A stretch of DNA of 64,000 bases from a virus. Below are positions 55,947 through 58,470 of the stretch, piece after piece; within the stretch, counting starts at the first letter, position 1, and the number at the start of each line of letters is the position of its first letter. Made by a program: the position numbers and the translations under genes. The notes under the pieces were generated by a model. That model had not been told where the DNA came from and made no database searches. It saw only the letters and a program-made list of their open reading frames with translations. The DNA is taken from the IMG/VR virus record IMGVR_UViG_3300043772_003377, positions 32,001 to 96,000 of that record. The stretch is one strand, 5' to 3'.

Positions 55947-57197
55947 ATGAATAAAATATTCATACAAATTGCAAGTTTTTCTGACCCAGAATTAATTCCA
56001 ACAATTAAAGATTGTATTAATAATGCGAAGTACCCTGAAAATTTAGTTTTTAGTATTTGTAGACAATATCATCCTGATAATACATTTGATGATTTATCCG
56101 AATACAAAAAAGATGAAAGATTTAAAGTTCTTAATGTTTTATATACAGAAACGTTAGGAGCTTGTTGGGCAAGACATCAATTACAAAAACAATATGATGG
56201 TGAAGAATATACTTTACAAATTGATAGTCATATGAGATTTGTAAAAGATTGGGACGAAATCTCAATTAATATGATTAAAGACTTACAATTAAAGGGTTAT
56301 GAAAAACCGTTACTTACAGGTTATGTATCTTCTTACGACCCCGATAATGACCCTAATGGTAGAATTAATGTTCCTTGGAGGATGGTATTTGATAGATTTA
56401 TTCCTGAAGGTGCAGTATTTTTCTTACCCGAATCAATACCTAATCATAGAGAATTAAAAGAACCAATACCCTCAAGATTTTATTCAGCGCATTTTTGTTT
56501 TACGATGGGTTCGTTTGTTAAAGAAGTTCCTCACGATAAAAATTATTATTTTCACGGAGAAGAAATATCAATAGCCGCAAGATCATATACCCACGGATAT
56601 GATTTATTTCATCCTCATATTATTATATGTTGGCACGAATATACAAGAAAAAATAGAAAAAAGGTTTGGGATTACGATAATGAATGGTATAAGAAAAACG
56701 ATACTTCTCACCTAAGAAACAGAAAACTATTCTCAATGGATGGAGAAGTATATGACCCCGAAGAATTCGGTATTTATGGATTTGGTAAAGAAAGAACTTT
56801 AAGAGATTATGAGAAATATTCAGGAATACTATTCTCAAAAAGATCGGTTCAACAATATACAATAGATAAGAACTACCCCCCAAACCCAATAATAGAAGAT
56901 GAGAATGAATGGTTAAAAAGTTTTACAAGTGTTTTTAAACATTGTATAGACATTAATCATAACCAAGTACCTGAAAAAGATTATGATTTTTGGGCGGTAA
57001 TCTTTAATGATAAAGATGGTAATGAAATTTATAGAAAAGATTCCGATAAAAACGAGATAAATAGATTGATGTTAGATAAAGATGGGTATTGTAAAATATG
57101 GAGAGAATTTAATACTTCCGTAAAACCAAAACATTGGGTTGTATGGCCTTATTCATCATCTAAAGGTTGGTGCGAAAGAATTACAGGTAATTTATGA
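55947..57197 (+). CDS. GT60-like polypeptide alpha-GlcNAc transferase (Gnt1/TcOGNT-like)
   Basis: IFIQIASFSDPEL..TI, GACWAR, YTLQIDSHMRF..WD (DxH), LLTGY, SAHFCF, VPHD...FHGEEISIAARSYTHGYDLFHP, WHEY. Confidence 0.8.
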   Translation: MNKIFIQIASFSDPELIPTIKDCINNAKYPENLVFSICRQYHPDNTFDDLSEYKKDERFKVLNVLYTETLGACWARHQLQKQYDGEEYTLQIDSHMRFVKDWDEISINMIKDLQLKGYEKPLLTGYVSSYDPDNDPNGRINVPWRMVFDRFIPEGAVFFLPESIPNHRELKEPIPSRFYSAHFCFTMGSFVKEVPHDKNYYFHGEEISIAARSYTHGYDLFHPHIIICWHEYTRKNRKKVWDYDNEWYKKNDTSHLRNRKLFSMDGEVYDPEEFGIYGFGKERTLRDYEKYSGILFSKRSVQQYTIDKNYPPNPIIEDENEWLKSFTSVFKHCIDINHNQVPEKDYDFWAVIFNDKDGNEIYRKDSDKNEINRLMLDKDGYCKIWREFNTSVKPKHWVVWPYSSSKGWCERITGNL

Positions 57198-57237
57198 AAA
57201 AACGATTTTTTAAAGTATTTATCATAAAAAAACTTTA

Positions 57238-58470
57238 ATGGAATTTTTTATTAAGAGATCGACCACTTTACCATTGTTAAAATTATCTGTCGTTAAAGAT
57301 GGAAGATCAGAATTTAACAATTTTATGAGTTTAATTGAGCAATCTGCAATTTTCTTCTCAATGACGGACGTTGAAACAGGTATTCCAAAGATAAGTTCAA
57401 GACCGGCAGGATTTGTTGAAAAACAAATGATTAATCCAAATGCCGAACCTGAATATTATATTTATTATCAATTTACTTCAAAAGATACAAATAGAATCGG
57501 TAGATATGAAGGTCAATTTATGTTAAGAAGTGATGATGGCGTTTTAATATTACCAATAAGGGAAAAATTATTTATAAATGTTCAAGAATCATTTATCGCT
57601 GACGATTTAGTTTATGAAACTTGTTATACTTCAGAATTTCCTTGTTGTGTAAGTCCTTTACCGACTCCAACAATTTTACCAACAACTACAACAACATCAA
57701 CTTCAACTACCACTACAACAACAATTCCTCCAACAGGAGTTACGGTTAGTATTTTAACTGAGGTTATGTCAGGTTCAGTTATATTTAATTTTAGCGTTGT
57801 TTTATCCAGACAATTAGATACAGATTATACGATAACTTTAACAAAAGAGTTTAATGTTATTAGCGGAAGTCCAATTAATGTTTCGGCAAGTATTACAATA
57901 CCTTCGAATGAAATATCAGGTGCCACATCTGTCGTAATTGATGATGATATAAATAGAATAGTTAGTGGTAGTACAACGTCATCTATCGATCATAACCCAA
58001 ATAATGGAGTTTCTTATACCGAGATAGAGGAAGTTAGGTATATTAATTTTACTCCTAAACCTTCTCCAACACCTACCCCAACACCAACTCCAACTCCTAC
58101 CCCAACACCAACTCCAACTCCTACCCCAACTCCAGTTCAAGAAACTTTTGTTAAGTTTGGTAAATCAACTAAACAAAGAATTTATGAGAGTGATATTACA
58201 GGATTTACAAAGAAAATACTTAATGATGTTAAGAATCAATATTTGGAATATCCTACACAACAAGGATATTGTTATTTATTGGTACCGAATTATATGAATC
58301 AACCAAGTGTGTTTAGAGATAGTGCCGATGGATGTGATGGATTTGTTATACCATTTTTAAGGGTTGAAGATATAGAAATTATTGACTCAAATGGAAATTT
58401 GAGTATATATTATGTGTATAGGTCTTTTGTCTCTACATCATCTAAGGTTGATGTATGGGTATGTGACTAA
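57238..58470 (+). CDS. Putative virion protein: BppU-like N-terminal domain plus mucin-like Thr and Pro-Thr tracts
   Basis: FFIKR..TLP.L...FSM...YYQF...DT...GRYEGQF; PTTTTTSTSTTTTTIPPT; a (PT)n tract of about 12 units. Confidence 0.7.
   Translation: MEFFIKRSTTLPLLKLSVVKDGRSEFNNFMSLIEQSAIFFSMTDVETGIPKISSRPAGFVEKQMINPNAEPEYYIYYQFTSKDTNRIGRYEGQFMLRSDDGVLILPIREKLFINVQESFIADDLVYETCYTSEFPCCVSPLPTPTILPTTTTTSTSTTTTTTIPPTGVTVSILTEVMSGSVIFNFSVVLSRQLDTDYTITLTKEFNVISGSPINVSASITIPSNEISGATSVVIDDDINRIVSGSTTSSIDHNPNNGVSYTEIEEVRYINFTPKPSPTPTPTPTPTPTPTPTPTPTPTPVQETFVKFGKSTKQRIYESDITGFTKKILNDVKNQYLEYPTQQGYCYLLVPNYMNQPSVFRDSADGCDGFVIPFLRVEDIEIIDSNGNLSIYYVYRSFVSTSSKVDVWVCD
58051..58134 (+). repeat. Pro-Thr codon repeat
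   Basis: Encodes TPKPSPTPTPTPTPTPTPTPTPTPTPTP. Confidence 0.9.

Follow-up and report, generated by a model that had tools for sequence, protein, structure and literature searches.

The jumbo phage studied here probably sugar-coats its own particle proteins, since our data place a relative of the GT60 glycosyltransferases next to fibre-like proteins with Thr/Pro stalks. Our best reading, to which we assign a probability of roughly 0.6, is that the phage O-glycosylates these stalks in the cytoplasm before assembly. By the window we mean the whole stretch of 64,000 nucleotides that was analysed; it belongs to a 104.5-kb fragment from the genome of a jumbo phage of roughly 320 kb, which is uncultured and comes from freshwater. 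The features central to the argument are as follows.

40051..42882, plus strand: 943-aa protein with a C-terminal papain-type peptidase domain (phrog_16701, PF00112)
42885..43808, plus strand: candidate acceptor of 307 aa with three (PT)n tracts (residues 76-119, nt ~43110-43241)
43820..55605, plus strand: variable stretch of fibre-like genes that separates the tract proteins from the enzyme, from PHROG matches
55947..57197, plus strand: soluble GT60-type (PF11397) glycosyltransferase of 416 aa, from profile, motifs and fold
57238..58470, plus strand: candidate acceptor of 410 aa with an N-terminal beta-sandwich, a poly-Thr tract, a middle domain, (PT)11 and a C-terminal domain

The enzyme is GT60/GT27-like by profile, motif and fold, the three comparisons used for its assignment. 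ORF 55947-57197 matches the Pfam family PF11397 ("GlcNAc") with an E-value of 3.8e-65 and 221.1 bits against a cut-off of 21, covering profile positions ~2-42 and 98-349 of 352 in two stretches, and phrog_24687 matches it over its full length (E 9.7e-165). The PHROGs category of the enzyme is "moron, auxiliary metabolic gene and host takeover". We found the DxH motif in LQIDSHMRF (D93-S94-H95) and the GEE motif in FHGEEIS (G204-E205-E206), as an earlier sequence-only reading of this DNA had claimed, and the columns of both motifs and of H230 are invariant in 41 aligned homologues with 33-90% identity. The replacement of the metal-binding DxD of GT-A enzymes by DxH is specific to GT27 and GT60 (PMC7185993).

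The profile and structure search proposed in that reading gave, besides the PF11397 match, polypeptide GalNAc-transferases as the nearest solved folds. We searched by fold because the enzyme sequence had no match among the PDB chains, where no GT60 structure was found by sequence. The AF2 model is confident (pLDDT 95.8), and the top 14 Foldseek matches are all polypeptide GalNAc-transferases with E-values of about 1e-10. In the VIA comparison the enzyme aligns with GalNAc-T1 (8v9q_A) at Z 21.8 over 271 aligned residues with rmsd 3.3, and with TgGalNAc-T3 of Toxoplasma (8uhv_A) at Z 20.0, whereas other GT-A folds reach Z 16.5 or less, at least 3.5 below the GalNAc-T matches. The model consists of a GT-A catalytic domain (residues ~1-300) and a conserved beta-rich C-terminal domain (~325-416), for which a look-up in the ESM Atlas gave no usable match. 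The enzyme has no hydrophobic segment (maximum KD19 0.88), and signal-like or membrane segments were found neither in it nor in the candidate substrates. The enzyme and its candidate substrates would hence share one compartment, which supports the best reading.

The gene directly 3' of the enzyme carries two tracts, in agreement with the sequence-only reading. ORF 57238-58470 begins 41 bases 3' of the enzyme ORF and contains the poly-Thr tract PTPTILPTTTTTSTSTTTTTT at residues 142-162 (nt 57661-57723) and PS(PT)11P at residues 275-299 (nt 58060-58134). Its beta-sandwich (residues 1-120) ends in Cys-Cys and is the only part modelled confidently by AF2; the tract regions have pLDDT <50 and are predicted to be disordered. 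The best folds for this protein are BppU-N-type phage baseplate domains with Z 7.7-8.4, against an Ig-like background near 7, and this weak model-based match is the one source from which the label "structural-type" is suggested. Only the N-terminal ~125 aa are conserved, and they form a standalone 125-aa gene in most relatives; some homologues of this domain bear Thr-rich C-terminal tails, and tracts like those of the full-length protein are present in a minority of the relatives.

The further tracts reported earlier were also recovered, and poly-Thr and (PT)n tracts are far above chance. Besides the (PT)n tracts of ORF 42885-43808, a protein for which the Pfam search found no family, ORF 40051-42882 contains STTTTTTT (residue 359, nt about 41125) and TTTTTS (residue 714, nt 42190). 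The peptidase domain of the latter matches phrog_16701 with E 5e-56 and also PF00112. This ORF is syntenic with a 1309-aa PT-tract protein located 5' of the enzyme in the complete relative G001 (72788-76717; 48% identity over 299 aa), and is 38% identical to the C1 peptidase ORF382 of phage XacN1. There are 7 Thr runs of at least five residues in the ORFs of the contig; the average over 200 within-protein shuffles is 0.42, and no shuffle has more than 3. We counted 17 copies of the TPTPTPT DNA pattern in the contig and 0 of the reversed control.

The neighbourhood suggests that the tract proteins are located on the virion. The genes at 43820-55605 include a 1049-aa tail-fibre-like protein, three paralogous virion-protein-like genes of ~230 aa and two Gly-rich minor-tail-like proteins, with matches to phrog_16641 (tail fibre), phrog_8510 (virion structural protein), phrog_754, phrog_356 and phrog_863 (tail) and to PF21722 (Gly_rich_2); the run is mostly absent from G001. 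These tail-fibre, minor-tail and virion-protein matches are weak to moderate, and the label "virion-surface module" is suggested by them. For the virion location of the tract proteins themselves, weak PHROG matches and the BppU-N-like fold (Z 8.4 against a background near 7) point in the same direction. A 980-aa protein of the window used as a query for relatives gave weak tail-fibre matches only, and a DNA similarity search with 40-60 kb of the window found no match among known phages.

The association between the enzyme and the tracts extends beyond this locus, but the particular pair of the enzyme and ORF 57238-58470 is not conserved in the relatives. Of 36 related phage loci, 33 have a Thr/Pro-tract ORF in the 5 kb upstream of the enzyme gene, and these cover 14 of the 16 enzyme clusters at 90% identity, while the background for a tract ORF in a random 5-kb window of G001 is 0.12. 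The tract genes are upstream of the enzyme in most relatives, and TP proteins flank it on both sides in the G015 lineage, whose enzyme is 39% identical. The enzyme is also near a DNA polymerase gene in most relatives and in XacN1.

The co-occurrence extends to very distant phages. The XacN1-type jumbo phages of Xanthomonas and Stenotrophomonas have the enzyme and many TP tracts: the exact TPTPTPT pattern occurs 16, 16 and 6 times in the enzyme carriers XacN1, Xoo-sp13 and CM1, with 0 in the controls, and with two mismatches allowed XacN1 has 245 matches compared with 6 in the control. Its TP-tract proteins include ORF232-237, ORF325 and ORF384. The nearest enzyme-free relatives of XacN1 by DNA polymerase, i.e. 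RsoM2USA, XbC2, XaC1 and Phosso, have 0-7 matches with two mismatches, not above their own controls; XbC2 and XaC1 have the same host genus as XacN1. The polymerases of XacN1 and G001 have motif-level similarity only, and the two lineages share the enzyme and two downstream cassette genes with 31-49% identity; ORF334 of XacN1 is a full-length enzyme homologue (46% identical). On the other side, three complete small phages have long TP tracts without the enzyme, and TP tracts do not depend on it. In the IMG/VR scan for the TP pattern, nine of 80 loci, including the enzyme-bearing phage G025, were dropped from the tally because the pattern encodes (GV)n on the opposite strand. Only few independent lineages show the co-occurrence, and within each of them shared ancestry is a confounder.

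Some bacterial homologues of the enzyme lie close to such tracts as well. Among 80 bacterial homologue loci, all 16 TP-tract ORFs lie no more than 5.2 kb from the enzyme gene and none at 6-10 kb. Three of the 16 are T6SS VgrG spikes with (TP)16-58 tails, 1-4 kb from the enzyme gene. A TP tract is absent within 10 kb at 63 of the 80 loci, indicating that the enzyme family has other acceptors or distant ones. We speculate, as a possibility that we hold to be rather doubtful, that prokaryotes have a widespread and so far unrecognised module of "mucin-type" O-glycosylation made up of GT60-type enzymes and (Thr-Pro)n tails, and that this module would be dedicated to contractile injection machines assembled in the cytoplasm (jumbo-phage fibres and baseplates, T6SS VgrG spikes), exchanged horizontally between unrelated phages and bacteria, and coupled in some lineages to prolyl hydroxylation.

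In the best reading, the enzyme belongs to the GT60/GT27 kind of polypeptide glycosyltransferases and is soluble and cytoplasmic. In the infected cell it would most likely attach a first sugar, taken from a UDP-sugar, to the hydroxyls of Thr/Pro and poly-Thr stalks, which are predicted to be disordered, in phage proteins that are probably of fibre or baseplate type. By family precedent the first sugar could be alpha-GlcNAc with UDP-GlcNAc as the donor. The tracts would be glycosylated before the proteins are built into the particle, since virions assemble in the cytoplasm, beyond the reach of periplasmic host glycosylation. Transferases encoded nearby might then extend the glycan, i.e. GT25 and HtrL-like proteins in the relatives and DUF2827 and DUF2827-GT25 proteins in this phage past the window, and the virion would end up with stiff, protease-resistant stalks coated in sugar. 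Family membership, fold, motifs and solubility of the enzyme are shown, as is its genomic association with the tracts; we infer its acceptor, the sugar and linkage, its biological role and the placement of the tract proteins on the virion. XacN1 virions have at least two Schiff-positive glycoprotein bands (Suppl. Fig. S4), the proteins in which are not named, and its authors proposed in 2018 that phage transferases are the source of the virion glycoproteins (PMC5852040); XacN1 encodes a second transferase besides ORF334. The claim that the phage primes its own mucin-like virion tracts is partly supported: the family and fold, the conserved adjacency, the distant co-occurrence, the VgrG-(TP)n loci and the XacN1 bands favour it, whereas the particular gene pair is not conserved and TP tracts also occur without the enzyme.

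The sequence-only reading had also assigned the extension and capping of the tract glycans to a glycosyltransferase and methyltransferase block at 25-37 kb. Our data place this block as follows.

25037..34853, minus strand: GT2 and methyltransferase block, possible glycan extenders, from Pfam matches
25037-25840, 29597-31105, 31721-32386 and 32383-33111, minus strand: four GT2-type glycosyltransferase genes (Pfam)
31136-31696, 33814-34302 and 34314-34853, minus strand: three methyltransferase-like genes (Pfam)
28858-29586: PhoH, which interrupts the block

The GT2 and methyltransferase genes are thus present at 25.0-34.9 kb, but with PhoH inside, and 34.9-37.4 kb encodes a dUTPase, an exonuclease and an unassigned gene and no glycan genes. 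The block is only partly kept in G001, where 31.1-34.9 kb has no counterpart. The assigned role is not supported: nothing connects the block to the tracts, and there are nearer candidate extenders, i.e. the GT25 and HtrL-like genes directly 3' of the enzyme in relatives and the DUF2827 and DUF2827-GT25 genes of the same genome just past the end of the window.

The tracts could instead be ordinary unmodified flexible linkers of modular fibre proteins, with the enzyme acting elsewhere (on host envelope or LPS precursors, or on another phage or host protein) and the two being neighbours only through a shared hypervariable accessory region. TP linkers are common unglycosylated spacers in many proteins, and the complete phages with such linkers and no enzyme fit this view, as do the PHROGs category, the LPS-biosynthesis annotation of the co-clustered GT25 and HtrL_YibB families and the majority of bacterial loci with no nearby tract. 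We nevertheless consider it unlikely: the closest family and fold of the enzyme act on polypeptides and not on lipids or polysaccharides, the pairing recurs with unrelated tract proteins and at bacterial VgrG loci, the enzyme is free of the membrane segment that lipid-linked acceptors would favour, and XacN1 virions are glycosylated (PMC5852040). Modification of host proteins for takeover or disarming, in the manner of bacterial glycosylating toxins and effectors and with the tracts irrelevant, would suit a soluble, cytoplasmic enzyme filed under "host takeover". We regard this as very improbable, since it leaves the association with TP tracts unexplained, there is no sign of early expression or of a host target, and conservation of the enzyme together with other transferases in one cassette points to the building of a glycan and not a single inactivating sugar.

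A different acceptor chemistry was weighed in two forms. The tracts might be glycosylated on hydroxyproline and not on Thr, after a prolyl 4-hydroxylase of the phage or host as in the Skp1 pathway (PhyA, then Gnt1). In favour of this, hydroxyproline is the target of Gnt1, the enzyme on which GT60 was founded, and the tracts contain as much Pro as Thr. Moreover, four PF11397 domains are fused to P4H-type 2OG-Fe(II) oxygenase domains in metagenomic proteins of 1641-2461 aa, and G001 has three PF13640 genes. Thr/Ser-directed GT60 members are described as well (PMC8724618), and the window phage has pure poly-Thr tracts without Pro. We found no PF13640/P4H gene in the 104.5-kb fragment, which is about a third of the genome, so this absence is not proof. 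PF13640 is present in G001, G002, G003 and G005, and absent from XacN1, Xoo-sp13, CM1, G015 and G009, and two enzyme-free phages have a weak match to it; its distribution does not follow that of the enzyme, and a prolyl hydroxylase was dropped as the enzyme's partner. Glycosylation on hydroxyproline seems quite improbable to us. Glycosylation of phage DNA on hydroxymethylated bases to evade restriction is hardly credible, even though the enzyme gene of XacN1 has DNA polymerase, RNase H and NUDIX genes nearby, that of G001 is close to DNA polymerase B, the HtrL-like neighbour shows a sub-threshold match (E 0.0068) to a TET-associated glycosyltransferase and a ThyA-family protein is present in all these phages. 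Both GT60 and GT27 act on polypeptides, and none of the phage DNA glucosyltransferases known to us is a member of either family. The ThyA-family proteins strongly match canonical thymidylate synthase (E about 1e-80), and BssHII, NaeI and SpeI cut XacN1 DNA (PMC5852040).

If glycosylation of the stalks before assembly is true, polypeptide O-glycosylation chemistry of the eukaryotic style would extend to tailed phages and, via the VgrG-(TP)n proteins, to bacterial secretion machines. It would account for the abundance of TP stalks in a group of freshwater jumbo phages that is very common. The enzyme together with TP tracts would also be a simple sequence marker predicting glycosylated virions, with consequences for how phages adsorb, resist proteases and are recognised. 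This can be tested directly, since XacN1 can be cultured and proteomics data for its virions are public (ProteomeXchange PXD008065, cited in PMC5852040). We know of experimental proof of virion protein glycosylation by phage enzymes only in mycobacteriophages, with a hint in XacN1.

Among known systems, the protist GT60 alpha-GlcNAc-transferases of Dictyostelium and Trypanosoma cruzi, which in both include enzymes that initiate mucin-type glycans, have PF11397, DxH and the GT-A fold in common with the phage enzyme, as judged by the family profile and published descriptions. Dictyostelium Gnt1, which modifies a hydroxyproline of Skp1, is soluble and cytoplasmic, as is the phage enzyme, and the proposed phage acceptors would by analogy likewise be Thr-rich or Pro-rich tracts. 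The phage enzyme differs in being encoded by a tailed phage and in its extra conserved beta-rich C-terminal domain of ~90-120 aa; GT60 enzymes are described as having no C-terminal targeting domain (PMC8724618). The GT27 GalNAc-transferases of animals and Toxoplasma are the closest solved structures, with the same DxH metal site and a two-domain layout of catalytic and C-terminal domain, although the sequences are about 12% identical. GT27 enzymes sit in the Golgi as type II membrane proteins and carry a ricin-type lectin domain, whereas the phage enzyme is soluble and its C-terminal domain has no lectin assignment.

In mycobacteriophages, phage-encoded transferases reportedly glycosylate virion subunits, which are assembled in the cytoplasm, in their C-terminal parts (Freeman et al. 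2023, Cell Host Microbe, cited in PMC12619734), and the Thr-rich tails of some homologues of the 125-aa domain resemble these. The hosts and phage types are different, the candidate sites here are Pro/Thr stalks of fibre-like proteins and not capsid or tail-tube tails, and the glycosylation is experimental there and inferred here. With this published work and the 2018 proposal for the XacN1 homologue as a maker of virion glycoproteins, the idea of the sequence-only reading, which knew of no description of a GT60-plus-tract arrangement, has partial precedents. The XacN1 paper neither names the family as GT60 nor ties it to TP tracts (PMC5852040). XacN1 is unlike the window phage in its high GC, its proteobacterial host, its very divergent DNA polymerase and the carbamoyltransferase in its cassette, and is like it in the homologous ORF334, the downstream cassette genes ORF332 and ORF330 and the abundant TP tracts.

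The enzyme that probably glycosylates the Thr/Pro tracts of this phage is encoded by a 416-aa ORF as follows.

55947-57197, plus strand: GT60-type enzyme (PF11397, 221 bits)

The PHROG family phrog_24687 matches it over its full length (E 1e-164), and across 41 aligned homologues with 33-90% identity the residues D93 and H95 (DxH), E205 and E206 (GEE) and H230 do not vary. DxH replacing DxD marks GT27 and GT60, two sister families having polypeptide Ser/Thr O-glycosylation in common (PMC7185993), and the mucin-type glycosylation of protists is started with GlcNAc by GT60 enzymes (PMC8724618). 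The AlphaFold model of the enzyme is confident (pLDDT 95.8), and its top PDB matches by Foldseek are all polypeptide GalNAc-transferases. The model aligns to mouse GalNAc-T1 in complex with a mucin glycopeptide with Z 21.8 (271 residues, rmsd 3.3); in the all-against-representatives alignment Toxoplasma GalNAc-T3 reaches Z 20.0 and the other GT-A folds at most 16.5. We found no hydrophobic segment in the protein, and hence it should be cytoplasmic. Its C-terminal part (~325-416) is a conserved beta-rich domain. Annotated transferases of the GlcNAc type also include related ones from uncultured tailed phages, Megaviridae and one pandoravirus. Immediately 5' of the gene is a 102-aa minimal nucleotidyltransferase (PF01909; 55593-55901, plus strand), overlapping the end of the preceding ORF.

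The window is taken from a 104.5-kb IMG/VR viral contig (bases 32001-96000) that has a GC content of ~30% and is put at 33% complete by CheckV, which implies a genome of ~320 kb. None of the known phages is similar to it in a DNA-level search; metagenomic relatives are abundant, with 155 related loci in IMG/VR and over 7,000 proteins at E 1e-5 or better in a large protein collection. G001 is a relative whose genome is complete (321 kb, with terminal repeats); its 102-73 kb region is collinear, in inverted orientation, with 11-43 kb of the window. The host may be a member of Bacteroidota, as weakly hinted by a SprB repeat in one G001 tract protein and by near-identical or 58-63%-identical copies binned in Bacteroidota and Saprospiraceae MAGs. 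An HNH/homing-endonuclease-like gene (539 aa; phrog_3339, E 6e-100) is encoded at 869-2488 on the minus strand.

All the features named by the sequence-only reading, i.e. the enzyme with its motifs, the gene downstream and the Thr/Pro tracts, were found in their reported places. The contig ORFs contain 7 runs of at least five Thr versus 0.42 expected from within-protein shuffles, and at the DNA level TPTPTPT is matched 17 times, its reversed control 0 times. Part of the (PT)11 tract at 58064-58134 arose by a recent triplication of 24 nt; the poly-Thr tract has mixed codons.

Most relatives encode, directly 5' of the enzyme and in the same orientation, large and very variable proteins rich in TP tracts. 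For the 36 loci whose sequence extends 5 kb or more upstream of the enzyme, we observed a tract ORF within 5 kb upstream at 33, which represent 14 of the 16 enzyme clusters (90% identity); a 5-kb window placed at random elsewhere in G001 has a probability of 0.12. G001 has 42 tracts in 8 of its 378 ORFs, two of which adjoin the enzyme, and its cassette is ordered as GT60, GT25 (PF01755), a 294-aa protein, an HtrL_YibB-like 557-aa protein, the 125-aa version of the N-terminal domain of 57238-58470, and DNA polymerase B. The cassette is split in the present genome, with the enzyme alone amid fibre-like genes, after which come the following genes.

99534-102797 of the contig (window-equivalent 67534-70797, past the window end): DUF2827 gene and DUF2827-GT25 fusion (E ~1e-93)

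These two are candidate extending transferases, closer to the enzyme than the GT2/methyltransferase block to which glycan extension had been assigned. That block does exist at 25-34 kb, but we found no tie between it and the tracts, and G001 lacks part of it, a variable island.

The ORF downstream of the enzyme (57238-58470) is conserved in relatives only over its first ~125 residues. In 62 of 73 relatives the domain stands on its own as a ~125-145-aa protein ending in Cys-Cys, usually ~3.3 kb 3' of the enzyme and adjoining the DNA polymerase gene; in this phage and a few others it runs on into a poly-Thr or TP tail plus further domains. The Cys-Cys terminus is invariant among all aligned standalone homologues, and the tails of the extended ones begin right after it. 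The structural model is confident at residues 1-120 only, with disorder predicted for the tract regions. The top fold matches are BppU-type N-terminal baseplate-anchoring domains (phage 80alpha, Z 8.4; TP901-1, Z 8.2/7.7; NF5, Z 8.0), which is only suggestive, since Ig-like folds score close behind (Z ~7). Nearby on the plus strand, a 1438-aa fibre (59334-63650) consists mostly of 87-nt (29-aa) Ser/Glu/Ala-rich repeats, and over its last ~60 residues it resembles the C-terminal end of a 161-aa protein just upstream (58492-58977). Three tandem paralogues of 228-248 aa (49597-51996, plus strand) match phrog_24074 and phrog_8510 (virion structural protein).

Only four records in the isolate-phage collection have full-length homologues of the enzyme (43-47% identity): the Xanthomonas phages XacN1 and Xoo-sp13 and the Stenotrophomonas phages CM1 and RAS14. 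This lineage is far from that of G001, as the DNA polymerases of XacN1 and G001 are alike at the motif level only. Downstream of the enzyme, the lineage of XacN1 encodes a carbamoyltransferase and then homologues of two G001 genes, the 294-aa one (31% identity) and the HtrL-like one (41%); baseplate-wedge genes lie ~9 kb from the enzyme, as does the gene of a 3313-aa protein with a TP tract. TPTPTPT is matched exactly 16, 16 and 6 times in XacN1, Xoo-sp13 and CM1, on the strands that carry annotated genes, and the reversed controls give 0. RsoM2USA, XbC2, XaC1 and Phosso (344-469 kb), which come next in DNA polymerase similarity, have neither PF11397 in a six-frame search nor any exact pattern. 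Allowing two mismatches, XacN1 has 245 matches versus 6 in its control, and these four have 2, 0, 1 and 7 versus 7, 4, 2 and 8, respectively. The host genus does not explain the difference, since XbC2 and XaC1 also infect Xanthomonas. Purified XacN1 virions show at least two Schiff-positive glycoprotein bands, known as bands only, whose source was proposed to be the two transferases of the phage, ORF328 and ORF334 (PMC5852040); ORF334 is the homologue of our enzyme.

A (TP)5.5 scan of IMG/VR gave over 119 stretches; 9 of 80 loci were rejected as not TP, the opposite strand encoding (GV)n. PF11397 was found in 9 of the 38 true-TP records searched, including deep branches with enzymes 35-39% identical to ours, in one of which (G015) TP proteins lie on either side of the enzyme. 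In a complete 108-kb phage (G025, L232), the minus strand at 25303-28539 holds a short GT60-like gene of 339 aa and, adjoining it, the gene of a 735-aa protein that has (GV)n linkers and ends in a Hint/intein-like domain; the TP pattern occurs there only on the opposite strand. We kept 80 of the 580 homologue loci found in bacterial genomes. Their 16 TP-tract ORFs are all within 5.2 kb of the enzyme gene, with 0 at 6-10 kb, and 63 of the 80 loci have no nearby TP tract. T6SS VgrG spikes with C-terminal (TP)16-58 tails lie 1-4 kb from an enzyme homologue in the following loci.

L320:12267-15128, minus strand: VgrG-(TP)n gene, Ralstonia sp. 25C
L323:15078-17564, minus strand: VgrG-(TP)n gene, Paraburkholderia ferrariae
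L269:13903-16389, minus strand: VgrG-(TP)n gene, Paraherbaspirillum soli

VgrG is phage-tail-like and assembled in the cytoplasm.

The tracts do not depend on the enzyme, as it was not found in three small phages with complete genomes and long TP tracts. That the tracts are plain linkers and the enzyme has an unrelated acceptor seems rather improbable to us. Linkage of the sugar to hydroxyproline is suggested by metagenomic fusions joining four GT60 domains to P4H-type oxygenases, but the distribution of P4H-type genes among phages does not follow that of the enzyme. The fusions P0122, P0123 and P0124 (1641-2461 aa) have four tandem PF11397 domains and 1-2 P4H-type 2OG-Fe(II) oxygenase domains, with an additional AhpC/TSA peroxiredoxin domain in P0122 and P0124; by their domain content they would link GT60 enzymes with prolyl hydroxylation. 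It is unlikely that the enzyme modifies host proteins, or that it glycosylates DNA: BssHII, NaeI and SpeI cut XacN1 DNA (PMC5852040), which argues against bulky cytosine glycosylation.

Our literature search found no paper on a GT60-type initiator paired with Thr/Pro stalks, nor on the same pairing recurring at VgrG tails. Phage-encoded glycosylation of virions is as a kind already known, having reportedly been shown in mycobacteriophages and been proposed for XacN1.
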